Program-made: the position numbers and the translations under genes
The notes under the pieces: generated by a model
What the model was told of the DNA's origin: nothing
Databases searched by the model: none
The model's input: only the letters and a program-made list of their open reading frames with translations
NCBI GenBank assembly: GCA_016178135.1
Contig: JACOTW010000002.1
Span: forward strand, 77,043-141,042
DNA: 64,000 nt
DNA from: Candidatus Saccharimonadota bacterium
GTDB lineage: Bacteria > Patescibacteriota > Saccharimonadia > Saccharimonadales > JACOTW01
Direction: 5' to 3'
Shown: piece by piece, positions 1,638-56,044 of the stretch
How positions within the stretch are numbered: the first letter of the stretch is position 1
How the letters are laid out: each line of letters starts with the position of its first letter

Positions 1638-1800
1638 TAGCCCCCGCAAAACAAATTCGGGGGTTTTGGAGCCGATGATCTTCGAGTCAAAAACTGGCTT
1701 TTCCGAGGGAAGCATATCATTAGATAAGGTGAGTGAGGAAAGACAGCTTTTGGCCGAAGAGGGCGGTTCAAAAAGCCGTGAATTTGTTTTGCGGGGGCTA
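1638..1800. mobile_element. MITE-like element, family B (alpha subtype), full copy B1
   Basis: Perfect ~21-bp terminal inverted repeats: TAGCCCCCGCAAAACAAATTC ... GAATTTGTTTTGCGGGGGCTA. TA lies on both flanks. It starts 3 nt after the GT2 stop codon. Near-identical copies sit at 24275 and 51038. Confidence 0.85.
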
Positions 1801-7720: not shown

Positions 7721-7727
7721 CAGATAG

Positions 7728-10240: not shown

Positions 10241-10269
10241 TTATGACAGTCTGAAAAGATTGGTAAGTT

Positions 10270-11322
10270 ATGAAATATAATCTACTGGACTTACGCAAAG
10301 CTCCCTCATCCCCAGACCAACTAACCTCGGCTGCAAACAGTTTTTCCTCTCTCGATGTACCTTCAGGTACCTCTCCTTCAGATAAAACTGTTTTCGCTCG
10401 AGCTGATTTGCCCTGGGAACGAGGGATTTTGCGTAAGTCCAGTCCACTCGACTTACACAAAATCGTCCGTTCCCAGAGTGAATTGCCCGAAACACCAGTT
10501 GCGCGAAAGACTCCATCTGTTAAATACAGCTCGGAGCCCATATTATCTAATTCTGCGCATTTCTTAGTGATTGTAGGGCCAACGGCTAGCGGAAAAAGTG
10601 CGTTAGCGATGGAGCTAGCTCAAAAATTAAATGGCGAAATAATCTGCGCTGATTCACGAACTGTATACAAGTATTTAGATATTGGTACCGCTAAACCTAC
10701 CAAAAAAGACAGAAAACAAGTGCCACATCATCTTTTGGATGTAGTTAATCCCGACCAGAACTTTACGGTTGCAGATTTTAAGTTACTGGCCAATGAGGCC
10801 ATAGATAACATACAAAAACGAGGGAGATTACCTATTATGGTTGGTGGTAGCGGACTATATATTGATGCTGTACTGTTTGATTATCAATTTGCAGCTGAAG
10901 GCATGCCACGTAATCCGATCAACCCGAGACATCTTATGCAAAAAAGGTCACGCCAGTTACAGGTATTACGCTCGAACACTCTTATTATTGGTTTGGATGT
11001 ACCTCGAGACATCCTAAAACAAAGAATTACGGATCGTGTACAAGACATGGTTGCGGTTGGTTTTATCGAAGAAGTACAACATCTTATGAAAATATATCCC
11101 GAAAGCAAAGCCTTACTAGCCCCAGGCTACAAGGCTTTTAGTGAATATATTAATGGTAATCTTAGTATCGAAGATGCCGAGGCCTTATTTATTAAAAATG
11201 ACTACCAATTAGTAAGGCGCCAGATGACATGGTTTAAGCGCAATAAAAGTATTCATTGGATAAATAACCCCAGTAATTCTGTAGAAATTATCACAACGTT
11301 TTTGAGTAAAACAATAGTTTGA
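10270..11322 (+). CDS. miaA: tRNA dimethylallyltransferase whose only in-frame ATG lies upstream of a family A repeat
   Basis: MiaA core from 'LVIVGPTASGKSALAMELA' onward, with 'DSRTVYKYLDIGTAKP' and 'LPIMVGGSGLY'. The first ~95 codons are translated repeat A3 plus a partial copy. An in-frame GTG at ~10567 is an alternative start. Confidence 0.8.
   Translation: MKYNLLDLRKAPSSPDQLTSAANSFSSLDVPSGTSPSDKTVFARADLPWERGILRKSSPLDLHKIVRSQSELPETPVARKTPSVKYSSEPILSNSAHFLVIVGPTASGKSALAMELAQKLNGEIICADSRTVYKYLDIGTAKPTKKDRKQVPHHLLDVVNPDQNFTVADFKLLANEAIDNIQKRGRLPIMVGGSGLYIDAVLFDYQFAAEGMPRNPINPRHLMQKRSRQLQVLRSNTLIIGLDVPRDILKQRITDRVQDMVAVGFIEEVQHLMKIYPESKALLAPGYKAFSEYINGNLSIEDAEALFIKNDYQLVRRQMTWFKRNKSIHWINNPSNSVEIITTFLSKTIV
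10284..10443. mobile_element. Family A element A3 (full), followed by a ~45-bp partial copy at 10446-10490
   Basis: ACTGGACTTACGCAAAG ... TTTTGCGTAAGTCCAGT. It lies inside the annotated miaA ORF, in the same frame and orientation as the copies in priA and the ROK kinase. Confidence 0.85.
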
Positions 11323-11350
11323 TTTATCGTCTGTCTGTTACAATGGGATC

Positions 11351-11977: not shown

Positions 11978-11981
11978 TATT

Positions 11982-12608: not shown

Positions 12609-12613
12609 AATGT

Positions 12614-12802
12614 CTATAAAAGACCTTTTTTCTTGAGTGTACGGATAGCTTGTGTACTAATTTTTAGAGTAATCTTCTTGCCATCAACGACAATGGTTTT
12701 GTTTTGTAAATTAGGCTTCCAAACTTTTTTGGTATGACGTTGTGAAAAGCTGACATTACTGCCATATTGTTTGCCTTTGCCGGTTAGATCACATACTTGC
12801 AT
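12614..12802 (-). CDS. rpmB: 50S ribosomal protein L28
   Basis: 'MQVCDLTGKGKQYGSNVSFSQRHTKKVWKPNLQ' is the canonical L28 N-terminus. The start is taken at the internal Met of the tracked ORF. Confidence 0.85.
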   Translation of the reverse strand: MQVCDLTGKGKQYGSNVSFSQRHTKKVWKPNLQNKTIVVDGKKITLKISTQAIRTLKKKGLL

Positions 12803-12938
12803 GGATGATATTGTATCTGTTTTGTCTCTGTAAGTCAATTAATCGATCTCATTCAAAATAAATCTAACCCAAGCCCCATTCGTTCTGTCGTAATAATCTA
12901 ACCTAAATAGCCATACTTGTTTCTGGAGGAAACGGAGT

Positions 12939-13758: not shown

Positions 13759-13956
13759 CAAAGTCATATCCGTCAAGCAGCAGGTATACGGATACCTAAC
13801 ACAACCAACCCATTAGATGGTCAATTTGGGGTCTGGAAGAGACGGATAAACAAACACTCAGGGCTCTCAAAACAACGGATAATTACACTGCTCCGTAGTT
13901 TCTTCTCTGAGGGAACAGATTAGGCTAGCAACATTATTTGAGTATTAACCCATAAT

Positions 13957-14101
13957 CACAAATCCTTTATCTGTTAGAGGACAGTCCTCTAGAATCCTCC
14001 TCTAGAATCAGTCCTCTAGAATCCCTCTAGAATCAAACCATGAACTTCGTATTTTTATATACACAAATCCTGCATCTGTTAGAGGATAGTTCTCTAGGAT
14101 C
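13957..14101. repeat. Direct ~40-bp repeats with the palindrome TAGAGGACAGTCCTCTA plus tandem TCCTCTAGAATC units
   Basis: CACAAATCCT..ATCTGTTAGAGGA.AGT.CTCTAG.ATC occurs at 13957 and 14062. There are 3-4 tandem (T)CCTCTAGAATC units at 13986-14034. An inverted copy at 14874-14893 lies just after the orphan gene. Confidence 0.7.
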
Positions 14102-14168
14102 ATAATTGTTTATGGTTTGAAAAGCATTACTAGGGGTATAAAATGGTTATATAAAAAGGAAGGGATTT

Positions 14169-14858
14169 ATGAGTGCAGACACAGGAGAGGGTGCGGTTAG
14201 TAGATACGAAGCAATTTTGTCAGCAGAACACAGTGCAGAAACAAAAGAAAGGTATCAAAAAGAGGCAGAGTTTTTAGCATTTTATGAACACTTGTTGGTG
14301 TTGGGACGCAATAAAGAAGTTGAACCCAATTTGATTAAAGGCCGTACCACGATTTCTGTACCTGCCTTTTTTGTCCTTGAAGGACATGGGACTAATCCTG
14401 TTAATAGAGCGGCTCTTGGATTACTCCCTACTTATTCATATTTCAAGGGCTACGGCGATAATGTGGAAACGCGCGTTGATGAGCCAGGATTGCGTCAAGT
14501 TCTAGCTTTGCCCGAGAATGAACTACAAGCCGCTAGAAAGGGTAAGGCTATACAGTTTATCGTAGCAAGTACCCTAGGATTACTTGACCCAGTTGCTAAA
14601 AAAACACTTCAAGAAGCTAGCCGTTCTTCTCGCAGTGGTTGGAGTGACGATACAAAACGTTCGCAGGATATTGGTGAGCTTGTTCGTAATGTCCCCAGTG
14701 ATCTTAATGAAATTGTTGTAAGTGAAGTAAGTGACATAGCAACTATGGTAGAACGAAAGGGTTATACGGACTTCCTAGATTACTTAGTTGACGCAAGGCA
14801 AATAATAGCAGATAGAGTTGCTACAATTTTTGCTCACGAAGCACCCGTTACAGAGTAG
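14169..14858 (+). CDS. Hypothetical protein (orphan, bracketed by palindromic sites)
   Basis: 229-aa ORF with SD AAGGAAGGG upstream. I recognise no motif. Confidence 0.5.
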   Translation: MSADTGEGAVSRYEAILSAEHSAETKERYQKEAEFLAFYEHLLVLGRNKEVEPNLIKGRTTISVPAFFVLEGHGTNPVNRAALGLLPTYSYFKGYGDNVETRVDEPGLRQVLALPENELQAARKGKAIQFIVASTLGLLDPVAKKTLQEASRSSRSGWSDDTKRSQDIGELVRNVPSDLNEIVVSEVSDIATMVERKGYTDFLDYLVDARQIIADRVATIFAHEAPVTE

Positions 14859-15356
14859 TTAATGGTTTTGTCAGGATCTAGAGGACTGTCCTCTTAAGCC
14901 TTAAGCTTCTGAAACACTTCCCAGGTTACTGGCTGCTGGCCGACTATTTGTTCTTCAATAAAATTTAGACCGCTGGCAGATAAACACCCCACTGCTTTGA
15001 ATGGACCCCCATGTTCCAGGCTTACAGAGTGCTCTGGGGATTGCATGAGTTTCATCGAACTGGAATGGGTGTGGTTGACCATTGGGCTGTTCTGGGATGA
15101 AGTGGCTGCTCTCCGTAGGAGCATTTCCCAATTGGTTACTGTGAGTCAACACTACGCGAATGAAGTCCCCACCAGCTTTGCTACAATCCGAATACAACAA
15201 TCTAAACCCAGTACAATTACTGGCTGAGATTAGATCTTTACTAACCGAACTGGAAACAACCTTGGGTTAGGTTTTATTGTGAATGATTACGTTAGTTGTG
15301 GAGGTTCTGTTTTTAGGTGTTGGCGACAAAGCGCAAAAGTCCTATATAATAAAGGT

Positions 15357-15974
15357 ATGATTTTTGAGCCGGGGGATATTTTTGTGGTAGCTGTGGCTAT
15401 TTTGCTGTCTATGGGATTCCATGAGGCAATGCATGCCTTTACTGCTCATTGGCTAGGGGACTCAACCGCCAAAGAGCAAGGACGGCTGACACTCAACCCG
15501 CTTAAGCATATAGATGTGGTTACTACAGTCCTACTACCTGTAATATTGATTTTATTAGGGCTACCCCCGATTTTTGCGGCTAAACCCGTACCATTTAATC
15601 CGGCCCTAGTTAAGTATGATGAATTTGGAGCGGCTCTTATAGGTATTGCAGGGCCCCTTACCAATCTTTTTCTGGCTATTATTGCTGCGCTTTTTCTTCG
15701 TGGCGTTAATCTTTCGGAGACTTTAGCACATGTATATCTTATATTTATAGCTGTAAATGTCGGATTTTTTGTCTTTAACATGATTCCGTTTCCGCCACTG
15801 GATGGCTCGCGTTTACTTTATGCTTTTGCTCCTGAACCAGTCCAACGCATCATGTATCAGATAGAATCAATGGGCTTCATGACGGTTTTATTGTTTCTAA
15901 TGCTACTTATTCCTGTGATTAGCCCCGTGATTGACTATGTTTACAGGCACATCATTATATTACTTCTCGGATAA
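15357..15974 (+). CDS. Site-2 protease family (peptidase M50) membrane metalloprotease
   Basis: The HExxH 'FHEAMHAF' lies in the first TM segment. There are multiple TM helices and the second motif 'NMIPFPPLDGSRLL'. The ATG at 15357 is 6 nt after TATAAT. Confidence 0.75.
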   Translation: MIFEPGDIFVVAVAILLSMGFHEAMHAFTAHWLGDSTAKEQGRLTLNPLKHIDVVTTVLLPVILILLGLPPIFAAKPVPFNPALVKYDEFGAALIGIAGPLTNLFLAIIAALFLRGVNLSETLAHVYLIFIAVNVGFFVFNMIPFPPLDGSRLLYAFAPEPVQRIMYQIESMGFMTVLLFLMLLIPVISPVIDYVYRHIIILLLG

Positions 15975-15983
15975 GGCGTATTT

Positions 15984-16144
15984 ACTGGACTTACGCAAAA
16001 TCGTCCGTTCCCAGAGTGAATTATCTCGAGCGAAAACTGTTTTATCTGAAGGAGAGGTAGCCATAGCTACATCGAGAGAAGAAAAACCGTTTGTAGCCGA
16101 TAGAATTTGATCTGGGGATGGAGGAGTTTTGCGACAGGTCCAGT
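15984..16144. mobile_element. Family A element A4 (full)
   Basis: 161 bp, ACTGGACTTACGCAAAATCG ... TTTTGCGACAGGTCCAGT. It begins 9 nt after the M50 stop codon. Confidence 0.85.
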
Positions 16145-16209
16145 TAAGCAGTTTTTAGCCCTGTAGGATTGGTTTGGGGTAGTGAAAAAATGCAAAAGTC
16201 CTATATACT

Positions 16210-16378
16210 ATATTGGCTGGGGAATACCAAGCTAATGATAATCTGAATACTTATCATTCGGGAGTTTAATATTATCGGTAACCGTGGTTACCGGATGAAA
16301 ACACCCACTTGGAATTACATTCCAGGTTGTCATCTTGGTTCTCAGTGAAAAAGCCCAAGGCTTCCTTGGGCTTTTTAC
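16210..16378 (+). ncRNA. Candidate structured small RNA of unknown class
   Basis: A TATACT -10-like box lies at 16204-16209. Three internal hairpins (AATGATAA/TTATCATT, GGTAACC/GGTTACC, CTTGGAAT/ATTCCAGG) are enclosed by ACCAAG/CTTGGT. A terminator AAAGCCCAAGG-CTTC-CTTGGGCTTTTT lies at 16350-16376. There is no ORF. Confidence 0.4.
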
Positions 16379-16431
16379 TTGGTCGGCACTCGTTTTTAGT
16401 TTTTTGACATATCTACAGATACATCTTCTTT

Positions 16432-16517
16432 ACTCGACTTACGCAAAATCGCCCGTCCCCAGAGTGAATCAGCTCGAGCAGATAGTGGTTTGACTGAAGG
16501 AGAGGTAGCCTTAGCTA
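16432..16517. mobile_element. Family A half-copy (A5), ending at its central TA
   Basis: ACTCGACTTACGCAAAATCGCCCG...GAGGTAGCCTTAGCTA is followed directly by a family B terminus. Confidence 0.75.
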
Positions 16518-16653
16518 TAGTCCCCGCAAAACAAATTCGTGGGTTTTTGAAGCAATGATCTTTGAGCCAAAAACTGACTTTTCCGAGAGAGACATATCCT
16601 TAGATACGTTGAACGAGGAAAGGCGGTTTTGGGCCAAAGAGGGTGATTCGAAA
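16518..16653. mobile_element. Family B (beta subtype) element, right end missing
   Basis: TAGTCCCCGCAAAACAAATTCGTGGG...GGTGATTCGAAA. It matches 37633-37796 over its whole length. Confidence 0.8.
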
Positions 16654-16691
16654 CTATTTGTAGTACGATCAAAAACACATAATATCTTGCT

Positions 16692-16767
16692 TGGTCGGGG
16701 TGACAGGACTTGAACCTGCGACCTCACGGCCCCCAGCCGTACGCGCTACCAACTGCGCCACACCCCG
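16692..16767 (-). tRNA. tRNA-Pro (anticodon GGG)
   Basis: Reverse complement: CGGGGTG..GCGC AGTTGGT AGCGC G TACGG CTGGGGG CCGTG AGGTC GCAGG TTCAAGT CCTGT CACCCCG ACCA. Confidence 0.85.
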
Positions 16768-16863
16768 TCTATTACTCGATTATTTCGTATTTTACATCAA
16801 TACTAAGGTTTTTATTAGTAAATCTTGAGATACTTGCGAACTATTATCTGTTAAGATAGTTGT

Positions 16864-17529
16864 ATGTGGCAAGAAAAAAACGGCGAATTATATCAAAAAT
16901 TTGAATTTAAAGATTTCCAGGATGCTTTTTTATTTATGCAAGTGGTGGCTACTGAAGCCGAAAAGCAACATCATCATCCTCGTTGGTGTAATGATTGGAA
17001 TGTAGTAGAGATATGGTTAAGTACGCATGAAGCTGGTCATGAAGTTACGGATAAGGATTGGTCGCTAGCGGAGAAAATCACCGAATTGTTCGATGGTCAG
17101 CAAATGTCTGCAGATGATTCAGTTATAAAATATGAAAAAATAAAGCTTTATGCCGATGGTGGCTCCAGGGGTAATCCTGGCCCTTCTGCTTCGGGCTATG
17201 TTTTGATGGATCTAAATGACAATGTTATATTCAGGACCGGCATTTATCTAGGTGTTACGACGAATAATCAAGCGGAATATAAGGCACTTAAATTTGGTCT
17301 AGAAAAAGCTCAAAAAATGCTAGTGCAAGAAGTAAATGTTTTCTTGGACAGTCTTTTAGTTGTGAATCAAATGAAAGGTACTTTTAAGATTAAAAATAAA
17401 GATCTTTTGCCAATTTATGATGCCATTCAAGAACTTCTAGGACATTTTCGAAAGGTTACTTTTACTCATGTCCCAAGAGCACTTAACAAGCTTGCCGACG
17501 CTGAAGTCAATAAGGTACTTGATCTATAG
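16864..17529 (+). CDS. Fusion protein: pterin-4a-carbinolamine dehydratase-like domain plus RNase H (type 1) domain
   Basis: The N-terminus 'FKDFQDAFLFMQVVATEAEKQHHHPRWCNDWNVVEIWLSTH' carries the PCD signature. The C-terminus 'LYADGGSRGNPGPSASGYVL...NNQAEYKALKFGLEKA...DSLLVVNQM...LNKLADAEVN' is an RNase H fold. Confidence 0.7.
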   Translation: MWQEKNGELYQKFEFKDFQDAFLFMQVVATEAEKQHHHPRWCNDWNVVEIWLSTHEAGHEVTDKDWSLAEKITELFDGQQMSADDSVIKYEKIKLYADGGSRGNPGPSASGYVLMDLNDNVIFRTGIYLGVTTNNQAEYKALKFGLEKAQKMLVQEVNVFLDSLLVVNQMKGTFKIKNKDLLPIYDAIQELLGHFRKVTFTHVPRALNKLADAEVNKVLDL

Positions 17530-17689
17530 CCATCCCAAAACAAAATGACCATTTTTGTCTGCGCCTGATGATCTAAAAACTACTTTTTTGTCTGTAGCAT
17601 ATCTACGGATATGCTTTAGCCAAAGAAAGCTAGTTTTTAGACTCATCATCCATCACTCAAAATTTGGTCATTTTGTTTTGGAATGGCTA
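17527..17689. mobile_element. MITE-like element, family C, copy C1
   Basis: TIRs TAGCCATCCCAAAACAAAATGACCA / TGGTCATTTTGTTTTGGAATGGCTA with TA on both flanks. Its first 3 nt (TAG) are the stop codon of the preceding gene. An inverted copy is at 22738-22900. Confidence 0.85.
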
Positions 17690-17761
17690 TACTATAGGCA
17701 TCAAACTCTGACTTGCCCCGATCCTGTACCCGTAAGCAGCACTAGTCGGCTTTTTTGCTAA

Positions 17762-17830
17762 ACTGGACCTGCTACAAAAATCCCTCGTTTCCGGGGCGAA
17801 TCAGCTCGAGCGAAAACTGTTTTTACTGGA
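17762..17830. repeat. Family A partial copy (left half)
   Basis: ACTGGACCTGCTACAAAAATCCCTCG...GAGCGAAAACTGTTTTTACTGGA. Confidence 0.6.
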
Positions 17831-17893
17831 TGTCATTCAATCTAAAAATGAAGTATGTCCGACAGTCCCAGTAAATGTTATAATTAACTCGTG

Positions 17894-18260
17894 CCAGATT
17901 ATCGGCTAATCGCCCCGCATATGCGGGGAGGAAAGTCCGGGCAGCGTAGGGAAAGACAGTCGCTAACGGCGACCGGGGGTAACCCTAGGGAAAGTGCCAC
18001 AGAAACGAAACCGCCTCGCATATGCGAGGTAAGGATGAAACGAGTGGGGTAAAAGCTCACAGTTCTATACGGTGACGTATGGGAGAGGTAAACCCTGTCT
18101 GCTGCAAGGAGATGGACTCTCATCGGCTAAACCGATTGGTGTCCCGCCAGAGCCTATCATAGAATCCGCTTGATCCGTCGAGCAATTGGCGGACTAGATA
18201 GATGATTAGCAGCCCCGCATATACGGGGTGAACAGAACCCGGCTTACGGATAATCTGGTA
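17894..18260 (+). ncRNA. rnpB: RNase P RNA, bacterial type A
   Basis: Conserved 'GAGGAAAGTCCGGGC' near the 5' end and 'ACAGAACCCGGCTTA' near the 3' end. P1 pairs CCAGATTATCGG (17894-) with CGGATAATCTGG (-18258). Confidence 0.9.
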
Positions 18261-18305
18261 CTTTATGTCTACTGTCAACGTTTAATGTGATGGACGTTAA
18301 TTATT

Positions 18306-19337
18306 ATGAGAAAAAACAAGAAATCTAATTTCCAGAATATTATTAGTACTCGTATGTGGACTAGGAACATTAAGTTGGTAGTATTTTTAGTAAGTTTTGG
18401 CTTAATTGGTGCTACATTTTTGCTAAAATCATACGCGATTACATCAAGCGAACCCCCTATGGGATTAATGATTCAAGTTTCATCTTTAGCCCCCAACACA
18501 ACACCGGCAACGCTAAAAACTTATCTTTCTACGATTCGCAAAAATCATCGTGATAAATCCAAGCCAGGCTATATTAACTCCATCGTTTTACAAGATATAG
18601 CAGATCAAAACGGTAATTTATTAACCAGTTATTTGGATGTTATTAAACCATTCTTGCCTGGCGGATCAACACCAGCTTTCGATCGCGCTTTTATTGGCAC
18701 AATCGATTTAAACTGGAGTGGAAGTGGCTCAAAATATATTGAAGGCATTGCCAACGCTACTTTTCGCGATAAGAACGTAAATCTTTCTAAAACTGTTGCT
18801 CAAGCCTTCAAAAAACGTTACCCATTAATAAAGACTGATTGGTATATAACATATGAGGCAAATTTGGCTGGTTTTTGGGACTCCAATATTGAAACGAATT
18901 ATCTAACCTATATCAATCAGCTGACCATAGCTCTATCGAGTGTAACTTCAGGCAAAACATTTATGTGGTCTCCAGCTTTTTGGACGCCCTATAGAAACGA
19001 ACCAGACTGGGCATTACCAGGACTAAAAACAAATTTCAACGATTTATTCTCTAAAATTCAGGCGCCTATAATTCTTAATTTTCAGGATTTTGTCGGTCAG
19101 AGTAACGGTAACTCAACAAAAGAGGACGCTGTAATCTGGCTGACTTACTTAAAACAAAATGTACCATCGTTAAGTAATATTCAGATTAATGTAGAACAAT
19201 TCAAGCAAAACACCGATGGTTCAATCGTCCCTGGCGACTCTACTGAATTGCCTGCCAGAGAAAAATATTACGTTAAAAATGGTATTAAATTAGGCCCAGC
19301 TTGGGAAATACGCTATTGGTATAAGCGATTATACTAA
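18306..19337 (+). CDS. Secreted or membrane-anchored hypothetical protein
   Basis: 343 aa. It has an N-terminal basic stretch and a TM/signal segment 'IKLVVFLVSFGLIGATFLLKSYA'. No catalytic motif is recognised. Confidence 0.5.
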   Translation: MRKNKKSNFQNIISTRMWTRNIKLVVFLVSFGLIGATFLLKSYAITSSEPPMGLMIQVSSLAPNTTPATLKTYLSTIRKNHRDKSKPGYINSIVLQDIADQNGNLLTSYLDVIKPFLPGGSTPAFDRAFIGTIDLNWSGSGSKYIEGIANATFRDKNVNLSKTVAQAFKKRYPLIKTDWYITYEANLAGFWDSNIETNYLTYINQLTIALSSVTSGKTFMWSPAFWTPYRNEPDWALPGLKTNFNDLFSKIQAPIILNFQDFVGQSNGNSTKEDAVIWLTYLKQNVPSLSNIQINVEQFKQNTDGSIVPGDSTELPAREKYYVKNGIKLGPAWEIRYWYKRLY

Positions 19338-19351
19338 CTATCGAAACTTGG

Positions 19352-19510
19352 CACGAGTTTCGCGCTTTTCCATCGTCCCAGATGACACCTGACAGGCTAC
19401 AGCCGCTCACTCCTCACTCAACATAGGCTATAGCCCAAGCCTCCCTCGGATTGAACAACTGTAACCAGCCAGCTACCACCTGGTATCAATGGCTAAGTGC
19501 GAAACTCGTG
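19352..19510. mobile_element. MITE-like element, family D, copy D1
   Basis: 14-bp TIRs CACGAGTTTCGC(G/A)C ... GTGCGAAACTCGTG. Alignable throughout with 56047-56205. Confidence 0.8.
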
Positions 19511-19547
19511 CCTGGTTGTAGCTCAAGGGGTTGTGAAAGAGGTCTAG

Positions 19548-19585
19548 TCTGGGGATGAAGGAGTTTTGCATAACTCGAGTCCAGT
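19548..19585. repeat. Family A partial copy (right end)
   Basis: TCTGGGGATGAAGGAGTTTTGCATAACTCGAGTCCAGT abuts the rplT stop codon. Confidence 0.6.
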
Positions 19586-19589
19586 AAAA

Positions 19590-19934
19590 TTATTTTTGAG
19601 TAACCTTAACTACGGCTTCAAAAGCTTTCGGTTCATTTACGGCAAGCTCACTCAAAATTTTACGGTCAATAACTACGTTGGCTTTTTTAAGGGCCGTAAT
19701 CAAGCGACTATACGTCGTACCATTTAGTCGAGCGGCGGCATTTATACGAGTGTTCCACAATTCTCTAAATGTTCGCTTACGATTTTTACGATCTCGCGTA
19801 GCGTACTGAAGTGATTTAGTTATTGCTTGCTTTCCACGCTTAATACTTGATCGATTACCACGAGTCATGCCTTTTGTAGCATGCCGAATTTTCTTGTGCT
19901 TGGCGTGACTGGCGACACCTCTTTTAACGCGCAT
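19590..19934 (-). CDS. rplT: 50S ribosomal protein L20
   Basis: '[16 protein letters not shown]...[23 protein letters not shown]' is canonical L20. Confidence 0.9.
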
Positions 19935-20008
19935 ATTTACTCCTTTTGGTAGTTTGCTTAAAATCTAATAATAAAAGTACTTTTGCTGATCGATTTGACG
20001 GACACATA

Positions 20009-22737: not shown

Positions 22738-22900
22738 TAGCCATTCCAAAACAAAATGACCAAATTTTGAGTGATGGATGATGAGTCTAAAAACTAGCTT
22801 TCTTTGGCTAAAGCATATCCGTAGATATGCTGCAGACAAAAAAGTAGTTTTTAGATCATCAAGCGCAGACAAAAATGGTCATTTTGTTTTGGGATGGCTA
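22738..22900. mobile_element. Family C element, copy C2 (inverted relative to C1)
   Basis: TAGCCATTCCAAAACAAAATGACCA ... TGGTCATTTTGTTTTGGGATGGCTA with TA flanks. It is preceded by a 15-bp family D terminus (22721-22735). Confidence 0.85.
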
Positions 22901-23825: not shown

Positions 23826-24200
23826 ATGCTAGGGCGCAAAACTCACAAGAACAATATTTTTCGTAAACTACTACTTAGTAGCTTATTGTTTTTGTTGTTG
23901 CTACTGATTTTTGGAACAGATCCCCAGAAAATGGCTCTGCCTCTTTTGGTTGCTCCATTTATACTTATATTTATACTTATTTTTCTTAGTTTACTTTTTG
24001 TAATACAGGGCAGACTGAATGCCCCAAAACTATTAACTCAAAAATCAATAACTATAGCTATTACGGCAGCTGGAATACCGGTCATGTTGCTAGTTTTAAA
24101 ATCCATTGATCAGCTATCTTTAAGAGATATACTGATTTTATTGGGACTTTTCGGAGGTATATTATTCTACATTTCAAGATCCGATATGCTGACATCCTAA
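23826..24200 (+). CDS. Small integral membrane protein (3-4 TM), hypothetical
   Basis: 124 aa, strongly hydrophobic, with L/I/F-rich segments. Confidence 0.5.
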   Translation: MLGRKTHKNNIFRKLLLSSLLFLLLLLIFGTDPQKMALPLLVAPFILIFILIFLSLLFVIQGRLNAPKLLTQKSITIAITAAGIPVMLLVLKSIDQLSLRDILILLGLFGGILFYISRSDMLTS

Positions 24201-24274: not shown

Positions 24275-24437
24275 TAGCCCCCGCAAAACAAATTCACGGC
24301 TTTTTGAACCGCCCTCTCCGGCCAAAAACTGTCTTTCCTCATTCACCTTATCTAATGATATGCTTCCCTCGGAAAAGCCAGTTTTTGACTCGAAGATCAT
24401 CGGCTCCAAAACCCCCGAATTTGTTTTGCGGGGGCTA
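24275..24437. mobile_element. Family B (alpha) element, full copy B2
   Basis: Same TIRs as B1 and TA flanks. It is immediately followed by family D copy D3. Confidence 0.85.
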
Positions 24438-24440
24438 TAC

Positions 24441-27933: not shown

Positions 27934-30096
<2,163 letters not shown>

Positions 30097-32801: not shown

Positions 32802-32928
32802 TAGCCCCCGCAAAACAAATTCCCGACTTTTCGAATCACCCTCTTTGGCCCAAAACCGCCTTTCCTCGTTCAACGTATCTAAGGATATGTCTCTCTCGGA
32901 AAAGTCAGTTTTTGGCTCAAAGATCATT
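32802..32928. mobile_element. Family B (beta) element, inverted and truncated (B5)
   Basis: TAGCCCCCGCAAAACAAATTCCCGACTTTTCGAATCACCC... is the reverse complement of the right part of 37633-37796. Confidence 0.8.
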
Positions 32929-37429: not shown

Positions 37430-37890
37430 TAACCCAACTTTCGCACTTATGGACATAACATTCCAGCTTGCCCTGATTCCGCACTCATAATAACGACTTT
37501 CGCACTTTTCCATCGCCCCCGTTCACACCAAACCGGCTGCAAACAGTTTTTCTGTCCTCGATGTAGCCACAGCTACCTCTCCGCCAGATAAAACTGTTTC
37601 GCTCGGTTTGATGCAACCTGGCATCGACAGATATAGTCCCCGCAAAACAAATTCGTGGGTTTTTGAAGCAATGATCTTTGAGCCAAAAGCTGACTTTTCC
37701 GAGAGAGACATATCCTTAGATACGTTGAACGAGGAAAGGCGGTTTTGGGCCAAAGAGGGTGATTCGAAAAGTCGGGAATTTGTTTTGCGGGGGCTATAAG
37801 TGCGAAACTCGTGATAATTAGCACTATTTGACTCTCTGACGAATTGATCTGGGGATGGGGGAGCTTTGCGACAGATTCAGTATAAGTCCA
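37430..37890. repeat. Nested mosaic of families D, A and B (full B6 at 37633-37796)
   Basis: In order: D-left fragments (ACTTTCGCACTTTTCCATCGCCCC), the A centre, a full B (beta) copy with TA flanks, the D-right end (AGTGCGAAACTCGTG) and the A-right end (TCTGGGGATGGGGGAGCTTTGCGACAG). Confidence 0.8.
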
Positions 37891-44157: not shown

Positions 44158-44599
44158 TTAGCCGGTATGGGCGACAAAACCTAGAACTAGTAACGCGCCA
44201 TACAAGGCCACAGTTTAGGCAGTAATAATGACGACTATCGCTTTGTAAGCCGTTACTAGTGCACTCTGGACAAGTGCTACGAGCATCTAGCCAATCTCTG
44301 TATGTATCAATGCAGTCTTGTATGTGATTTTTATCTATGATTATGTCATAATTTGCTGCCAGTTTTTCGGCTTTTGACCAAGCGGCTACCTCTAACATCA
44401 AAAGTTCCATGTCTGTTTTATAGATTGTATGGTTGAGGAGTCCGTGAGCAAGCTCGTGCATTAGTGACCACTCTGCTACGCTGGAATATTCAGATTTATA
44501 TATGATTTTCTTCTCTTCGGGTGACCAGCAAAATGCTTCGCCAGACACAAAACTAAGTTCTGTAAAATCTTTAGCCAGTCTATCAAGTAGATTTTGCAT
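44150..44599 (-). CDS. Putative zinc metallopeptidase-like protein (HExxH) with a C-terminal zinc ribbon
   Basis: 'LMHELAHGLL' is an HExxH motif, and 'CPEC...(14)...CLNC' looks like a zinc ribbon. It overlaps the upstream ROK gene by 17 nt, suggesting an operon. Confidence 0.5.
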   Translation of the reverse strand: MQNLLDRLAKDFTELSFVSGEAFCWSPEEKKIIYKSEYSSVAEWSLMHELAHGLLNHTIYKTDMELLMLEVAAWSKAEKLAANYDIIIDKNHIQDCIDTYRDWLDARSTCPECTSNGLQSDSRHYYCLNCGLVWRVTSSRFCRPYRLRA

Positions 44600-45563
44600 G
44601 ACTATCCCTTATTAATTCATAACAACCATATATTACAGCTTCTTCTGGCCGTTGTGCTTGTAGAATAGGAGGCATAGAAATTAATGGCATCTTGTATTTT
44701 TTTAGTTCGTTAACTAAAAAATCAGCAAATCTATCATAATAAGATGCCACCCCACCACCTAGAATTACTACTTCTGGCTCAAATAGTGATATGAAATTAA
44801 TAAGTCCTACGGATAAGTCTCTGGCAATAATCTGCCAAATTTTAGGATCTTCTATTTCGCTCGCTCTCTTGCCAAAACGTCTTACGATTGCTTTGCCTGA
44901 AGCAAAATTTTCCCATAACTCCATAGCTCCATCGTGCTCAACTAGCAATCCTTTGCCACCACTATCTCCTAATGATAAATCAATTACTCCACTTGTTACC
45001 AGGGCAGCCCCTATACCGGTTCCTATGGTTATGTATAGTACTTTATCGTAGTCTTGCTTAACAAGAATCGCTTCAGATAGGGCTCCTAGTTTTGCATCGT
45101 TTTCTACGGCAACAGGACACTTAACAATTTTTTCTAGATCAGATTGAATAAATTTATTTTTCCAGTTTAGATTCCCGCTACTTTTAAGTTTGCCTTGCTC
45201 TCTATCTAAGACACACGGGATACCTACACCGGCCCCCAGAAAACTATTAGTCTGTAGAACAGATATACTTGACTTACGCAAAATCGCCCGTTCCCAGGCT
45301 AAATCAGCTCGAGTTGGGAGTGGTTTGGCTGAAGGAGAGGTAGCCATAGCTACATCGAGAGAAGACAGACTGCTACCAGCCGAGATGAATTGGTCTGGGG
45401 ATGGGGGAGCTTTGCGTAAGTCCAGTATATTACTCCCCAGTTCTATTAAAAAATCATCATAGTTCTTGATCGTAGGGAATCGTAGTTTTTTTATTATATT
45501 ACCCATATCATCAAAAGAGGCAACAAGTGTTTTTGTCCCTCCAACATCTACAGCCAAATACAT
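44583..45563 (-). CDS. ROK-family sugar kinase (glucokinase-like) interrupted in frame by a family A repeat
   Basis: 'MYLAVDVGGTKT', 'GAGVGIPC', 'ENDAKLGALSE', 'ITIGTGIGAAL' and 'ILGGGV'. Residues ~46-99 ('ILDLRKAPPSPDQFISAGSSLSSLDVAMATSPSAKPLPTRADLAWERAILRKSSI') are the translated repeat A12. Confidence 0.85.
   Translation of the reverse strand: MYLAVDVGGTKTLVASFDDMGNIIKKLRFPTIKNYDDFLIELGSNILDLRKAPPSPDQFISAGSSLSSLDVAMATSPSAKPLPTRADLAWERAILRKSSISVLQTNSFLGAGVGIPCVLDREQGKLKSSGNLNWKNKFIQSDLEKIVKCPVAVENDAKLGALSEAILVKQDYDKVLYITIGTGIGAALVTSGVIDLSLGDSGGKGLLVEHDGAMELWENFASGKAIVRRFGKRASEIEDPKIWQIIARDLSVGLINFISLFEPEVVILGGGVASYYDRFADFLVNELKKYKMPLISMPPILQAQRPEEAVIYGCYELIRDSHAKST
45267..45426. mobile_element. 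Family A element A12 (full) inside the ROK kinase ORF
   Basis: 160 bp with AT/AT flanks. The internal ~125 bp differ at one position from the intergenic copy at 48627-48788, which is inverted. Confidence 0.9.
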
Positions 45564-46782: not shown

Positions 46783-48540
46783 GTGAGTTCCATTATAGAA
46801 ATTGATAACATAATAACCGTTGGCGATCTTGCCGATAAGCTCATGCTACCTGTTACGAAATTGATAGCTGAACTTATGAAAAATGGTGTCATGGCGACGG
46901 TTAATGAGCGTATTGATTTCGACACGGCCCAAATTATCGTTGGTGAGCTGGATCTAGATGTGGAACTAAAGAAAAAAGATACTGAAAGTTCAACAACACC
47001 GCGCCAAAGAATTATCGCATCAGAAAAAGCTACGCCTAGACCACCGGTTGTTGCAGTTATGGGTCATGTAGATCATGGTAAAACAAGTTTACTGGATGCC
47101 ATTAGAGGTTCGGAGTTAACCAAAGCCGAGGCCGGAGGGATTACTCAACATATTGCAGCTTATCAGGTTGAACATAATGGTCGTTTTATCACACTTCTAG
47201 ATACTCCAGGACACGAGGCTTTTGCCGCTCTTCGTGAACATGGTGCTCAATTGACTGATTTAGTTATTATTGTGGTTGCTGCTGATGATGGCGTGAAGCC
47301 GCAGACAATAGAAGCTATTCGTTTCGCACGTAAAGCGAATGTTAGGATTATAGTAGCTATTAACAAGATGGATAAAGAAGGGGCTGATTCTAACCAAGTT
47401 AAACAACAGCTTGCCGAACAAAAATTATTAGTAGAAGAGTGGGGTGGCGATATTGTAGCTCTTGAAGTTTCAGCCAAGACCAAAAAAGGTGTCAATGAGC
47501 TTCTGGATATGATTTTATTGGTTGCAGATGTGGAAGATTTGCGTGCCGATAACAATGTGCCCGCCAAAGGATTGATTATTGAGTCGCATATGGAGCGAGG
47601 GCGAGGACCTGTAGCTGTAGCACTTATAGAGGAAGGAACTCTACATAGTGGGGATTATGTTGTAACTGGCGCAACATATGCCAAAATTCGTAATCTTGAA
47701 TCAACTAACGGTAAGACAATACGAGACGCCGGACCATCTACACCCGTAGTGATCACTGGTTTTAAATCTCTTCCAGAATTTGGAGATGAATTTATTATAT
47801 CTGTAGATGAAAAAACTGCTCGCCAGGAAGCTAAAACCATAGATATTGGTCGTAAATCGGAGGGGCGATCGGATATTGGTAATAGTGAACTGATTAGGAT
47901 GATTAATCGTCATAATCAGGTTAGCGAATTCAATGTAATTATAAAAACAGATGTTCAGGGTTCACTAACTTCTGTTGTTGATAGCCTAAGAACTCTCGAT
48001 ACTGAAGAGGTGGTAGTGCGTGTCGTGGCTAGCGGGGTTGGGCCTGTTAACGAAAATGATGTTCATCTGGCTCGTAGCAGTTCAGCCATTATTTATGGCT
48101 TTAACGTCCCTGTTCCCCCAAACATCAAACAACTTGCAGTTAGAGATCGAATACGTATTCGAATGTATAAGGTTATATACGAGTTGATTGATGATACTAA
48201 AGATGAAATGAGCAAGCTTTTAGTGCCAGAGATTATAGAAACTGTCATGGGTCAATTGGTCGTTAAGGGCGTTTTCAAGACCACTAAAACAGAAGTTATT
48301 TGTGGTGGTGAAGTCACAAAAGGTAAGTTAGTAATGCCGGCACTTGCACGGGTTATTCGGGATAAACAAGAGTTGGCTGAAGTAGAAGTAACTAACCTAA
48401 AACGTGGTACGCAAGATACAAAAGAAGTGTTTGAAGGTGAAATGTGTGGAATGAGCTTGAAGTATTCGTCACGAGTTGATCTTGTGATAGGCGATCGCGT
48501 AGAATTGTTCACGAGAGAGACAAAAGAACGCAAACTGTAG
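46783..48540 (+). CDS. infB: Translation initiation factor IF-2 (short N-terminus)
   Basis: G-domain 'VVAVMGHVDHGKTSLLD', 'DTPGHEAF' and 'NKMD', followed by typical IF2 domains II-IV. It starts with GTG. Confidence 0.9.
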   Translation: MSSIIEIDNIITVGDLADKLMLPVTKLIAELMKNGVMATVNERIDFDTAQIIVGELDLDVELKKKDTESSTTPRQRIIASEKATPRPPVVAVMGHVDHGKTSLLDAIRGSELTKAEAGGITQHIAAYQVEHNGRFITLLDTPGHEAFAALREHGAQLTDLVIIVVAADDGVKPQTIEAIRFARKANVRIIVAINKMDKEGADSNQVKQQLAEQKLLVEEWGGDIVALEVSAKTKKGVNELLDMILLVADVEDLRADNNVPAKGLIIESHMERGRGPVAVALIEEGTLHSGDYVVTGATYAKIRNLESTNGKTIRDAGPSTPVVITGFKSLPEFGDEFIISVDEKTARQEAKTIDIGRKSEGRSDIGNSELIRMINRHNQVSEFNVIIKTDVQGSLTSVVDSLRTLDTEEVVVRVVASGVGPVNENDVHLARSSSAIIYGFNVPVPPNIKQLAVRDRIRIRMYKVIYELIDDTKDEMSKLLVPEIIETVMGQLVVKGVFKTTKTEVICGGEVTKGKLVMPALARVIRDKQELAEVEVTNLKRGTQDTKEVFEGEMCGMSLKYSSRVDLVIGDRVELFTRETKERKL

Positions 48541-48567
48541 CCATCCCATAGCAAAACGGGTATTTTT
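48538..48567. repeat. Family C-like terminus remnant supplying the infB stop codon
   Basis: TAGCCATCCCATAGCAAAACGGGTATTTTT resembles the C terminus TAGCCATCCCAAAACAAAATGACCATTTTT. Confidence 0.5.
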
Positions 48568-48626
48568 AGGCGACGGAAAAGTGCGAAACTTGTGTCCGAG
48601 AAGGTATTTTGCGACAGGTCCAGCAT

Positions 48627-50950: not shown

Positions 50951-51037
50951 TAGTCAGTTGTGCTCTGTTGCTATGAAAAGGTGTGAAAGTCCTGTATATA
51001 TAGGACTTTTACACTTTTTTGTAGATATAGCCCCCGC

Positions 51038-51190
51038 AAAACAAATTCACGGCTTTTTGAACCGCCCTCTCCGGCCAAAAACTGTCTTTCCTCACTCACC
51101 TTATCTAATGATATGCTTCCCTCAGAAAAGCCAGTTTTTGACTCGAAGATCATCGGCTCCAAAACCCCCGAATTTGTTTTGCGGGGGCTA
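51038..51190. mobile_element. Family B (alpha) element, full copy B3, supplying the priA stop codon
   Basis: Same TIRs as B1/B2 and TA flanks. The last 3 nt (CTA, 51188-51190) are the reverse complement of the priA TAG stop. Confidence 0.85.
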
Positions 51191-53308
51191 TAACAGGGTA
51201 GCGGGAAGACTTTTGATAATTTCAAGCAATTTCCCTCGACTTCTTGATTTCACTATCAATTGCCAATGATATTTGCCTTGTTGTTTTTCATGAAATGCCG
51301 GTGATGGTCCGATGATTGATAGAGATAATTGTTTTTGCTGGAGTTCTAATAGTAATTTTTCCGAGGCTTTTTTAGCAGATTGCTGGGTGGCACGTTTGCA
51401 AGATAGTTTGAGAAGATAACAGAAGGGAGGGAATATGAAAATTTCACGTTCATGCAACTGTTGTTTATAAAATTCTTCATAATTTTTAGTTATTGCAGCG
51501 TTAATGATCGGGCTTTCTGGATGATATGTTTGTATTATCAACATACCTTTAAGGTGTCCGCGCCCTACTCGACCACTGACTTGGCTGATCATCTGAAATG
51601 TTTTTTCTTCAGCGGTATAATCTGGAATATATAAGCCGGTATCAGCCACAACTATGCCCACTAAACTTAATCGAGTCAAATCAAGGCCTTTTGAGAGTAT
51701 TTGTGTCCCGACCAATATATCTACGGCTCCACTTTCTATAGTTTCGTAATGCATTTCTAGCCGATCGGCCTTAAGATTGTCGCCGTCAAACCTTTGCACC
51801 CTTGCCTCGGGCAGTAGTCTTTTTATTTCGGCAACAATAAGTTTTGTGCCTATGCTCTTGAAGATAACTTCAGTACCGTGACAGTTTGGGCAATTAGATG
51901 GAGTTTGTTCGCTATGACCGCACGTATGGCATAAAGCCAAATGAGTATCACCATGATAGGTAAGTGGAAGGTCGCAACGTGGACAAAGTAGCTGCCAGCC
52001 ACAACTTTGACACAATATTATTCGTGCCGTACCCCGTCTATTTAAGAAAAGCAAAGACTGTTCCTTGTTTTGTAGGCGTAAGCGCATTTCTTTTATAAGA
52101 TCATCGGATAGCCATTTTGATTGTGAAAAATGAGCCTTATCTTGTAGTGCTATTAATTTGGTGACGGAGCCTGCTTCATTAGACTTATGCAAAATTGTTT
52201 GTTCCTGGGGCGAATCAGCTCGAGCGAAAACTGTTTTGTCTGAAGTAGAGGTACCTGAAGGCACATCGAGAGAAGAAAAACTGGTTGTAGGCGAGGTTAT
52301 TCGATCTGGGGATGGGAGAGCTTTGTTTAAGTCCAGTTTAGCGGTCTCTGTGGCTGCTCTTGTCATGCGGACGATTGGCAGTCCCTTCGCCTTAAAGGTG
52401 AAGTAGTCATTGATTAGGGGGGTAGCGGAGCCAAGTACTAGTCGCGCACCTTCTAATTGGGCTAAACGTGCTGCAACTCGTGTTGTTTGATAGTTGGGGG
52501 CTTGTTCTTGCTTGTATGCTGTGTCATGAGCCTCGTCTACCACAATAAGTCCTATGTTTGACAAAGGGGTGAACAATGCCGATCGAGGTCCAACTACCAC
52601 TAGTGGCTCCTCGGCCTCCAGAATCTTTAACCAGGCATCACGCCTTTGTGCCGAGGTTAGCGCGGAATGTATACCGATAATTTGATCAGGAAATGCTACT
52701 TCCAGCATTTTTATTAGTTGAGGCGTAAGACCGATTTCGGGTGTTAATATGAGTACTGAACGACCATTTTGAATCTGTTCTTTTGCTAATTCAATATATA
52801 CCCTGGTTTTGCCTGTGCCGGTATCGCCATGCAGCAATATGGGTTCTTGTTTTTTTGATGCTTGTATTTGTTGTAGTGCAGATTGCTGATCAGGCGTAAG
52901 CGTTGGGAGCTTTTTTTCAGGGGGTGGAGGAGTTTCGGGTAAGTCGTCGAGTATAGGGATTTTGCTTGGGCCCGGTGTCGGTCTAGCTTGTTGCTGGATG
53001 CCACTCGGTAAAAATAATTGTATCAAGACCCCAGAAGGAGCTGGATAATAAGATCTAAGCCACCCAAAAAGCTTAAACACCGAAGAAGGCACAGGATTTT
53101 TACCTATTTGCTTCAATATAGATTGAGTTTTAAAAGCTGGCTTTTTAACTTGAGCATTAACGATACCAAGTACTACTTGTCGCCGTAGACCTACAGTAAC
53201 AACAGAGCCATTTTCTATCGATATGTCGCTTTCGTAAATCAGAGGCTTATCACCATGATATCTAGGGCTACTTATCCAAACTTCGTAGTACGACTTTATT
53301 GTAGGCAT
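51188..53308 (-). CDS. priA: Primosomal protein N' (replication restart helicase PriA) interrupted in frame by a family A repeat
   Basis: 'LLHGDTGTGKT', 'VVDEAHD' and a Cys-rich zinc module 'CQSCGWQLLCPRCDLPLTYH...CHTCGH...CPNCHG', then 'GTQILSKGLD' and 'QVSGRVGRG'. The segment 'LDLNKALPSPDRITSPTTSFSSLDVPSGTSTSDKTVFARADSPQEQTILHKSN' is the translated repeat A13. Confidence 0.9.
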   Translation of the reverse strand: MPTIKSYYEVWISSPRYHGDKPLIYESDISIENGSVVTVGLRRQVVLGIVNAQVKKPAFKTQSILKQIGKNPVPSSVFKLFGWLRSYYPAPSGVLIQLFLPSGIQQQARPTPGPSKIPILDDLPETPPPPEKKLPTLTPDQQSALQQIQASKKQEPILLHGDTGTGKTRVYIELAKEQIQNGRSVLILTPEIGLTPQLIKMLEVAFPDQIIGIHSALTSAQRRDAWLKILEAEEPLVVVGPRSALFTPLSNIGLIVVDEAHDTAYKQEQAPNYQTTRVAARLAQLEGARLVLGSATPLINDYFTFKAKGLPIVRMTRAATETAKLDLNKALPSPDRITSPTTSFSSLDVPSGTSTSDKTVFARADSPQEQTILHKSNEAGSVTKLIALQDKAHFSQSKWLSDDLIKEMRLRLQNKEQSLLFLNRRGTARIILCQSCGWQLLCPRCDLPLTYHGDTHLALCHTCGHSEQTPSNCPNCHGTEVIFKSIGTKLIVAEIKRLLPEARVQRFDGDNLKADRLEMHYETIESGAVDILVGTQILSKGLDLTRLSLVGIVVADTGLYIPDYTAEEKTFQMISQVSGRVGRGHLKGMLIIQTYHPESPIINAAITKNYEEFYKQQLHEREIFIFPPFCYLLKLSCKRATQQSAKKASEKLLLELQQKQLSLSIIGPSPAFHEKQQGKYHWQLIVKSRSRGKLLEIIKSLPATLL
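52178..52337. mobile_element. Family A element A13 (full, diverged) inside the priA ORF
   Basis: ATTAGACTTATGCAAAATTG...GGGATGGGAGAGCTTTGTTTAAGTCCAGT. It is colinear with A1 and A4. Confidence 0.85.
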
Positions 53309-54036: not shown

Positions 54037-54186
54037 TAGTCCCCGCAAAACAAATTCGTGGGTTTTTGAAGCAATGATCTTTGAGCCAAAAACTGACTTT
54101 TCCGAGAGAGACATATCCTTAGATACGTTGAACGAGGAAAGGCGGTTTTGGGCCAAAGAGGGTGATTCGAAAAGTTGCGGGGGCTA
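54037..54186. mobile_element. Family B (beta) element with a ~12-bp internal deletion near the right TIR (B7)
   Basis: TAGTCCCCGCAAAACAAATTCGTGGG...GATTCGAAAAGTTGCGGGGGCTA, followed by TA. Confidence 0.8.
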
Positions 54187-54231
54187 TAATTATAGCCAAA
54201 CTAACTGTGGTTTGATACACTTTTGTTATAA

Positions 54232-55998: not shown

Positions 55999-56044
55999 TA
56001 GCCCCCGCAAAACAAATTCGGAGGTTTTGGAGCCGATGATCTTT
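55999..56044. repeat. Family B (alpha) left-end fragment (B8)
   Basis: TAGCCCCCGCAAAACAAATTCGGAGGTTTTGGAGCCGATGATCTTT, starting 6 nt after the map stop codon. Confidence 0.7.

Follow-up and report, generated by a model that had tools for sequence, protein, structure and literature searches.

RUP (repeat unit of pneumococcus), a miniature inverted-repeat transposable element (MITE) of Streptococcus pneumoniae presumably mobilised by IS630-Spn1, bears terminal repeats similar to those of this insertion sequence and uses TA as its target (PMC2229807). It was shown previously that insertion of IS630 itself causes duplication of 2 bp in the sequence CTAG (PMC2577343). In Neisseria, Correia elements (NEMIS) were described as MITEs of 100-155 bp which duplicate TA, give rise to stem-loop transcripts and are often co-transcribed with flanking genes; one length class of these elements contains stop codons in all frames, and another is fused to open reading frames (ORFs) (PMC2229807). 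Here, we describe two families of palindromic repeats, referred to as B and C, found in a 64,000-nucleotide stretch of the genome of Candidatus Saccharimonadota bacterium (assembly GCA_016178135.1, contig JACOTW010000002.1, positions 77,043 to 141,042), called the window below. Saccharibacteria, and Patescibacteria in general, have small, reduced genomes, usually described as poor in mobile DNA, and no work on MITEs or IS630 elements in these bacteria was found in the searched literature. Repeats of several MITE families, many of them near-identical, occupy about 5 kb, i.e. about 8%, of the window. In our view, B and C are very probably IS630 MITEs whose insertion duplicates TA, and their accumulation at the 3' ends of genes reflects a target preference, selection, and the TAG built into their termini.

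Termini of families B and C and their IS630 relatives

The terminus of family B, TAGCCCCCGCAAAACAAATTC, was matched at 13 places in the window with at most one mismatch, and at none in 100 shuffled sequences; the terminus of family C, TAGCCATCCCAAAACAAAATG, was matched at four places with the same tolerance. The two termini have 16 of 21 positions in common. Within each complete copy, the 21-bp ends, read as inverted repeats, are identical or one base apart, so that they constitute terminal inverted repeats (TIRs). Family B is represented in the window by nine copies, four of them complete (163 bp) and five truncated or internally deleted, and family C by two to three, among which C1 and C2 are complete and oppositely oriented (Table 1). 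Members of both families are near-perfect foldbacks along the whole 163 bp, encode no transposase and share the central motif CATATC-N4-GATA(T/A)G. Every complete copy is predicted to form a single hairpin, with energies of -55 to -92 kcal/mol and z scores of -7 to -15 (C1, -76.7 kcal/mol, z -12.5; B1, -86.7 kcal/mol, z -9.6). The copies are 97-100% identical to one another, which would be in support of recent activity.

All 19 intact ends (15/15 in family B and 4/4 in family C) are preceded by TA, and no other direct repeat was found beside any of the complete copies. At C1, the two TA copies lie at 17525-17526 and 17690-17691. The degenerate C-like remnant at 48538, which matches TAGCCATCCCAAAACAAAATG with three mismatches, is preceded by TG, not TA.

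Table 1. Coordinates, within the window, of family B and C copies and of the uninterrupted family A centre
Feature	Position	Strand	Remarks
B1, complete family B MITE	1638..1800	+	TA-flanked; flank TAGaTA
Uninterrupted family A centre, paralogous empty site	16051..16081	+	GGAGAGGTAGCCATAGC-TA-CATCGAGAGAAG
B copy without right end	16518..16653	+	sits in central TA of a family A copy
C1, complete 163-bp family C copy	17527..17689	+	ends TAGCCATCCCAAAACAAAATG and its reverse complement with one mismatch
C2, complete family C copy	22738..22900	-	about 98% identical to C1, inverted relative to C1; TA-flanked
Complete B copy	24275..24437	-	inverted relative to B1; TA-flanked
B copy without right end	27936..28072	+	TA-flanked on the left
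Truncated B copy	32802..32928	-	in central TA of another family A fragment; downstream of gyrA
Complete B copy, TAGTCCCC subfamily	37634..37796	+	TA-flanked
C-like degenerate terminus TAGCCATCCCATAGCAAAACG	48538..48570	+	18/21 bases; fused to a CACGAG-family end
Complete B copy	51028..51190	-	terminal TAG of right end is the priA stop
B copy with 10-bp internal deletion	54037..54189	+	TA on both sides; left end in family A central TA
B left-end remnant, 46 bp	55999..56044	+	followed by a CACGAG-family MITE

A degenerate pattern of the terminus was searched against contigs of other genomes, which yielded at least 77 loci. Among the loci listed, most belong to metagenome-assembled genomes (MAGs) of Patescibacteria (Saccharibacteria, Uhrbacteria, Kuenenbacteria, Roizmanbacteria and Minisyncoccia), and further ones, often at contig ends, to MAGs labelled Pseudobdellovibrionaceae, Deltaproteobacteria, Gammaproteobacteria and Limnocylindria. 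The loci are mostly pairs of ends at the distance expected for a MITE; in at least five of them the ends are 1.09-1.14 kb apart and enclose ORFs of 341-348 amino acids. Altogether, at least eight full-length elements of 1.09-1.14 kb are bounded by the same terminus (L014, L018, L042, L053, L076, L083, L084 and L085), and TA precedes every one of their ends whose flank is present in the sequence. The products of the two elements that were scanned, L018 and L042, matched the NF033545 model, 'IS630 family transposase', with E values of 1.2e-59 and 1.5e-55, respectively, and contain the Pfam domain DDE_3 together with helix-turn-helix (HTH) domains. Elements L083-L085, retrieved in a protein search, encode proteins 76-80% identical to that of L018, with recorded matches to DDE_3 and HTH; in each case TAG(C/T)C..CCGCAAAACAAATTCGGG forms the ends, with TA on the outside. 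In L076 the transposase frame is broken.

The terminus of this clade of insertion sequences reads TAGCCCCCGCAAAACAAA. That of L042, ...CAAAACAAAATG, is closer to family C, and the L042 transposase is 47% identical to the B-type transposase of L018. What the MITEs have in common with the full-length elements is the outer part of about 30 bp, TAGCC(nn)C(n)CAAAACAAA and a short tail, taken here to be the putative transposase-binding terminal repeat. Since their ends match full-length elements of the IS630 type, and the B- and C-type transposases are 47% identical, B and C would be MITEs derived from a single IS630 clade, each depending on a transposase related to, but distinct from, that of the other. 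A first-pass annotation of the window, made from its sequence, had suggested related TIRs, mobilisation by the same or related transposases, TA beside every intact end and, as one possibility, a TA duplication of the Tc1/mariner-IS630 kind; all these suggestions are upheld. The transposase homologues looked up belong to other metagenome assemblies. It may be assumed that a DDE transposase of the IS630 family, supplied in trans, would cut the element out and paste it into TA, as the cut-and-paste habit of the family implies, with TA becoming duplicated on insertion. Hints of such mobility are three independent insertions into the same family A site, in both orientations, and a difference between two assemblies of the genome at MITE sites.

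Duplication of TA at the insertion site

Insertions of B into another repeat of the window, family A, allowed the junctions to be compared with an uninterrupted site. The centre of family A, GGTAGCCATAGC-TA-CATCGAGAG (GC-TA-CATCG), occurs in 10 copies in the window, eight of which have a single TA. At least three B insertions occupy this central TA, and both orientations are represented, the copy at 54037-54189 being nested in a family A fragment the opposite way to that at 16518. The left junction at 16518 reads ...TTAGC TA, followed by the first bases of the element, TAGTCCCC. The right junction, in which the element ends with GGGGGCTA and is followed by TA and CATCGAAAG, is seen at 32802 (minus-strand reading) and in the NCBI version of the 16518 locus; a further right junction, at 54037, consists of the element end GGGGACTA, TA and CATCGAGA. 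Because TA is present at both types of junction in insertions into a site with a single TA, it is a target-site duplication. The first-pass annotation had held that duplication and membership of TA in the TIR could not be told apart from sequence; the nested insertions overturn this statement.

For C1, two forms of the gene before insertion were reconstructed, with the product ending ...LDLL* if TA was duplicated and ...LDPIGIKL* if it was not. The C-termini of the 120 closest homologues of the Pterin_4a/RNase H protein, at most 68% identical to it, end with ...LDAEAKK, and favour neither reconstruction. No orthologous empty site was obtained from the syntenic Saccharibacteria locus L047, about 72% identical, where a C-type copy lies in extra DNA.

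Stop codons and the 3' ends of genes

The positions of B and C relative to stop codons, as given in the first-pass annotation, all proved correct. B1 starts 3 nt after the TAG stop (1632-1634) of a GT2-like ORF, and 6 nt separate the stop of map (55990-55992) from the B remnant at 55999, within the sequence TAG TAG tTA | TAG. In other cases, the element provides the stop. The first TAG of C1 (17527-17529) terminates the ORF 16864..17529, described before as PCD-RNase H and recognized by Pfam as Pterin_4a/RNase H; the terminal TAG of a B copy (51190-51188, minus strand) terminates priA; and the TAG of infB (48538-48540) is placed inside the C-like remnant. The TGA stop of ORF 44150 lies within the right arm of a different palindromic element, G. 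The duplicated TA supplies the second and third bases of a Leu codon (cTA or tTA) both at C1 and in priA, the last Leu of the latter being encoded by tTA. According to the reconstructed empty site, the product interrupted by C1 ended ...VLDLL* and now ends ...VLDL*, i.e. it became one residue shorter. Terminal TAGs end long ORFs in other genomes as well, namely at L015 (399 codons), L034 (492), L042 (103) and L009 (92).

The remaining window copies are more varied in position. The B copy at 27936-28072 begins 15 nt past the TAA stop (27918-27920) of a HerA/TraG-like ORF and lies about 35 nt ahead of gyrB, and that at 24275-24437 is found 74 nt past the stop of ORF 23826..24200, with a CACGAG-family MITE (24440-24600) directly next to it. 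The B copy at 37634-37796 occupies the spacer between the gene for tRNA-Ala (minus strand) and that for 23S rRNA, and its right TA is adjoined by a solo end of the CACGAG family. The start of a comM-like gene is 386 nt downstream of C2. No copy of B or C was found inside the interior of a gene in the window.

Six of the eight free B/C insertions fall between -30 and +18 nt of a stop codon, compared with a fraction of 0.17 of permissible TA sites (binomial P 5e-4, in a post hoc test on a window chosen for this very pattern). Permissible sites were defined as TA in intergenic non-repeat DNA or in the last ten codons of a gene, and the null was modelled on an ORF-based gene list of the window; gene calls from an exact-protein look-up were available for 1-20240, gyrA was found on a short Logan contig only, and priA had no record. 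In this form, the proposed clustering of copies near gene 3' ends is supported.

Sequences flanking the elements are not random either. Of 114 flanks, 101 have A or T at -5, 47 have G at -4 and 45 (39%) have C at -3; in a set of 119, TAG begins at -6 in 12, compared with about two at the other offsets. Insertions nested in other repeats contribute in part to this flank logo. By symmetry, this preference would correspond to a palindromic target about TAGnTAnCTA, and the C at -3 is reminiscent of the CTAG of IS630. The TAG of the TAGnTA motif is a real gene stop at B1, L052 and L061, and at 55999 the motif directly follows the map stop. Due to this motif, a genuine TAG stop at B1, L052 and L061 stands two codons upstream of the element and in frame with it. 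The terminal TAG is in frame with the upstream stop in all six window cases and in 15 of 25 cases across the dataset, where a third would be expected; the latter tally includes long ORFs ending within 45 nt upstream of an element. We considered this excess as a separate phenomenon and rejected the idea, as the TAGnTA flank motif largely accounts for it.

Read inwards from either end, the elements begin with TA|TAG, thus one frame in three is stopped at once; in the G-rich orientation of B, a second frame is stopped at a TGA 13 codons in. Family C has stops in all six frames. On the other hand, B with its duplication is 165 bp, or 55 codons, long, and the frame TA|T AGC CCC... is open throughout, in both orientations and both subfamilies. 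No similarity of this 55-codon frame to a transposase was found. If B entered a TAA or TAG stop at its TA, the protein would gain 55 residues and the stop would be restored, a property that might have arisen by chance; no such fusion occurs among the window copies.

We attribute the 3'-end pattern to three causes acting together. The target preference would be for TA placed within TAG-like sequence. Purifying selection in a gene-dense genome would remove insertions from the interior of coding sequences and from regions that serve as promoters or in ribosome binding, and mostly a few bases after the stop, or the last codons, would stay available. Finally, the element carries its own TAG ends, and since inward reading meets TA|TAG and stops one frame at once, an insertion into the last codons would deprive the protein of no more than its tail.

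A possible active targeting of stop codons

A different explanation, to which we give a small chance, is that the transposase or a host factor steers B and C to TA-containing stop codons or terminators, and that the clustering is an insertion preference as such. The proximity of six out of eight free insertions to stops, the excess of TAG at -6 with its three real stops (B1, L052 and L061), and the 15 of 25 upstream stops in frame with the terminal TAG are all in line with this proposal. However, in no insertion did the duplicated TA come from a stop codon itself, and the in-frame excess is mostly due to the TAGnTA flank motif. Moreover, families with other termini also abut stops: family A begins 6 nt past the stop at 15974, a CACGAG element begins 15 nt past the stop at 19337, and G overlaps a stop. 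C2 and the B copy at 37634 are away from any 3' end. Among the 77 listed loci of other genomes, 30 ends are within 50 nt of the 3' end of a long ORF, and as many as 23 are within this distance of a 5' end. As to terminators, 16 terminator-like sites were counted in window positions 1-20000, and 16.6 in shuffled sequence. An intrinsic terminator consists of a G+C-rich stem with a loop of 3-8 nt, followed by a U tract, and the scan for such structures flagged no B or C terminus. Therefore, from the idea of targeting put forward in the first-pass annotation, the part concerning stop codons and terminators is not supported, as no stop TA is hit and terminators are not in excess, and a preference for TAG-like flanks is what stands.

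A possible role of the hairpins in RNA 3'-end formation

One could also suppose, on the model of effects reported for Correia and ERIC-type elements, that B and C are retained for an effect of their transcribed hairpin on the upstream mRNA, either stabilisation or termination; this would explain both their position and their conservation. We regard this as unlikely, somewhat more so than targeting. The hairpins are indeed very stable, and the end of B holds the sequence CCCCCG-N11-CGGGGG-TTTT; this terminal hairpin has, however, a loop of 11 nt and was not called a terminator by the scan. In the C-type copies from four genomes, 93.6% of cells are paired, 20 of 52 pairs are changed on both sides (2-5 in slid controls), and the apical CATATC-nACG-GATATG is nearly invariant. 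Such a covarying stem with a nearly invariant apical hairpin would be in line with an RNA function, but the changes are almost all from one Watson-Crick pair to another, and maintenance of a DNA palindrome, or homogenisation of its arms, fits equally well. In B, G.U pairs are polarised in the predicted folds, with 5-8 counted on one strand and 0-3 on the other, and the G.U-tolerant (better-folding) strand is the sense strand in 7 of 9 copies; this bias is not significant (P ~0.09). The copies are near-identical, hence too young for their retention to be tested, and no Rfam family was matched at the gathering threshold.

A bolder version of the same idea, which we consider doubtful and a shade less probable still, would see in B and C portable cassettes for gene 3' ends, composed of a stop codon and a stabilising or terminating RNA hairpin and retained in Patescibacteria. 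Under this assumption, the elements would be delivered next to TAG stops by the TAGnTAnCTA target motif and kept in Patescibacteria, a group in which canonical terminators are not in excess.

Weighing the evidence

The reading in which TA belongs to the terminal repeat, and the element is TATAGCC...GGCTATA of 167 bp inserted with no target duplication, is hardly tenable. The invariance of TA at all 19 ends is by itself compatible with either view. However, the 167-bp insert predicts TAGCTATATAG or CTATATACATCG, neither of which was seen, the family A junctions observed are TAGC-TA-[TAG... and ...CTA]-TA-CATCG (the bracket marks the edge of the element), and the lack of any duplication would conflict with the IS630-type DDE transposases of the full-length relatives.

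Several points weigh against our interpretation of B and C as IS630 MITEs that duplicate TA. The empty site used for comparison is paralogous, i.e. another family A copy, not orthologous, and none of the nested B insertions has both junctions intact in one assembly. The protein collection contains no close related strain, the best homologue of the neighbouring gene being only 67-68% identical. No transposase gene or remnant was detected in the 64-kb window (best tblastn E value 0.09), and B matches the full-length elements found over about 30 bp of its end, with an interior unrelated to them. The covariation of the hairpins across genomes could mean a function beyond transposition. Finally, selection and targeting cannot be separated on the basis of a snapshot of surviving insertions.

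Second assembly of the genome and other repeats

The same genome is represented by a second assembly, GCA_016196105.1, in which the corresponding contig is JACPYE010000003.1 (L080). Over the stretch compared, the two assemblies are identical outside repeats and differ exactly at two MITE sites. JACPYE010000003.1 lacks window positions 1558-1638; this 81-bp deletion reaches one base into the left end of B1, with loss of the GT2-like stop, and as a result the GT2-like gene is called 31 codons into B1 on that contig. At the other site (window 16428-16651), the assemblies hold different deletion variants of a nested A/B composite. Real variation in the population, an unstable palindrome or a fault of assembly could each be the cause of these differences. 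In view of this, assembly or population variation may likewise account for some of the truncated copies.

Practical consequences follow for genome annotation, which, with the mobile-element load of a reduced genome, is where the main interest of these repeats lies. Palindromes of 163 bp break or scramble assemblies, and the inside of the terminus is where many contigs of other MAGs break off. The MITEs also shift the annotated ends of genes, as at C1, priA and infB, and mislead gene callers.

Family A differs from B and C in that some of its copies are found within ORFs. One copy (52171-52345), inside priA (51188..53308, minus strand), is read through in frame and accounts for residues ~321-379 (KLDLNKALPSPDRITSPTTSFSSLDVPSGTSTSDKTVFARADSPQEQTILHKSNE). 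PriA proteins of known structure can be aligned with residues 48-320 and 400-700, and in them these two parts are separated by only some 21 residues; thus the family A copy appears as an extra segment of ~59 amino acids between the helicase lobe and the zinc ribbon. Two further copies, 10278-10484 and 45259-45432, are situated in the 5' parts of ORFs 10270..11322 (IPPT/miaA according to the pipeline call) and 44583..45563, respectively. Either the true starts of these genes are downstream of the MITE, or these copies are translated as well.

The CACGAG family has the ends CACGAGTTTCGCAC...GTGCGAAACTCGTG and is present at 22722-22737, 37797-37815, 24440-24600, 19352-19510, 56046-56205 and 48571-48596. 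Its solo ends abut TA beside B/C ends twice, in the form CACGAGTTTCGCACT-TA-TAGCC, one of these junctions being at the left TA of C2. The subterminal sequence of the family, ...ACTTAGCCATTG, resembles the C terminus. This arrangement suggests either that the duplicated TA of resident elements has been used repeatedly for insertion or that chimeric elements exist.

Outside the window, a Saccharibacteria MAG contig (CAYGIR010000012.1, L026) bears two of the MITEs, a B copy with 96% identity to the TAGTCCCC subfamily of the window and a family A copy with ~80% identity; the MITE coordinates on this contig are 5771-5942 and 979-1139. DNA flanking this locus has no nucleotide match in the window. 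Either this genome is a close relative or the MITEs have spread horizontally in recent time.

The rRNA operon of the window (33296-43592, plus strand) is unusual in that the genes for tRNA-Ile(GAT) and tRNA-Ala(TGC), located between 16S and 23S, are encoded on the opposite, minus, strand (37057-37371). With 3884 nt, the match to 23S is longer than the model (2925 nt), which implies insertions. A group II intron domain was matched at 34967-35049, just past 16S, and MITE copies are present in the spacer. A separate observation concerns the right end of C1, which together with the duplicated TA and the flank (17665-17693) makes a promoter-like sequence, TGGTCA-17-TATACT, agreeing with the consensus at 9 of 12 positions, a weak match; the gene for RNase P RNA (17894-18262) follows about 200 nt downstream.

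Comparison with known systems

REP/BIME sequences, which are short imperfect palindromes of 20-40 bp mobilised by RAYT proteins of the IS200/IS605-like kind and lack TIRs bounded by a target duplication, were considered as a possible affiliation of B and C and rejected, because the latter are 163 bp long, have TIRs of 30 bp, duplicate TA and have relatives encoding DDE_3 proteins. With the IS630 family (IS630 and ISY100; Tc1/mariner), B and C share relatives of about 1.1 kb that encode DDE_3 and an N-terminal HTH, the presence of TIRs, a 2-bp duplication of TA and a palindromic target around it. In contrast to members of that family, they have no transposase of their own, and their flank is TAGnTA with a partial preference for C at -3, not a strict CTAG.

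Rickettsia palindromic elements (RPEs) are palindromic repeats that can be located inside coding sequences with the frame kept, and B, with 165 bp including its duplication and an open frame, would be able to behave in this way. To our knowledge, neither a TA duplication nor a transposase partner has been described for RPEs. Unlike RPEs, no copy of B or C in the window lies in a gene interior, and it is the family A copy in priA that is read through. Correia elements may be viewed as a functional parallel to B and C, and their ends also read TA|TAG. They differ from B and C in having no known transposase partner, in possessing an IHF site and in being confined to Neisseria.

The closest known system is RUP, which is likewise small, non-coding and present in many copies, has TIRs matching those of an IS630-family insertion sequence, inserts at TA, and contains stop codons in its reading frames, as does family C (PMC2229807). 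What distinguishes B and C from RUP is that they are foldbacks along their entire 163 bp, with a conserved apical hairpin, and reside in Saccharibacteria, and that their partner insertion sequences were found in other Patescibacteria and metagenome assemblies. RUP is 107 bp long, and its sequence is not known to be related to that of B and C. The biology of IS630 MITEs, including duplication of TA, tolerated insertion at the 3' ends of genes and termini that carry stop codons, is established from RUP, Correia and ERIC-type elements; what we describe here is this ordinary mechanism in an unusual host, Saccharibacteria.

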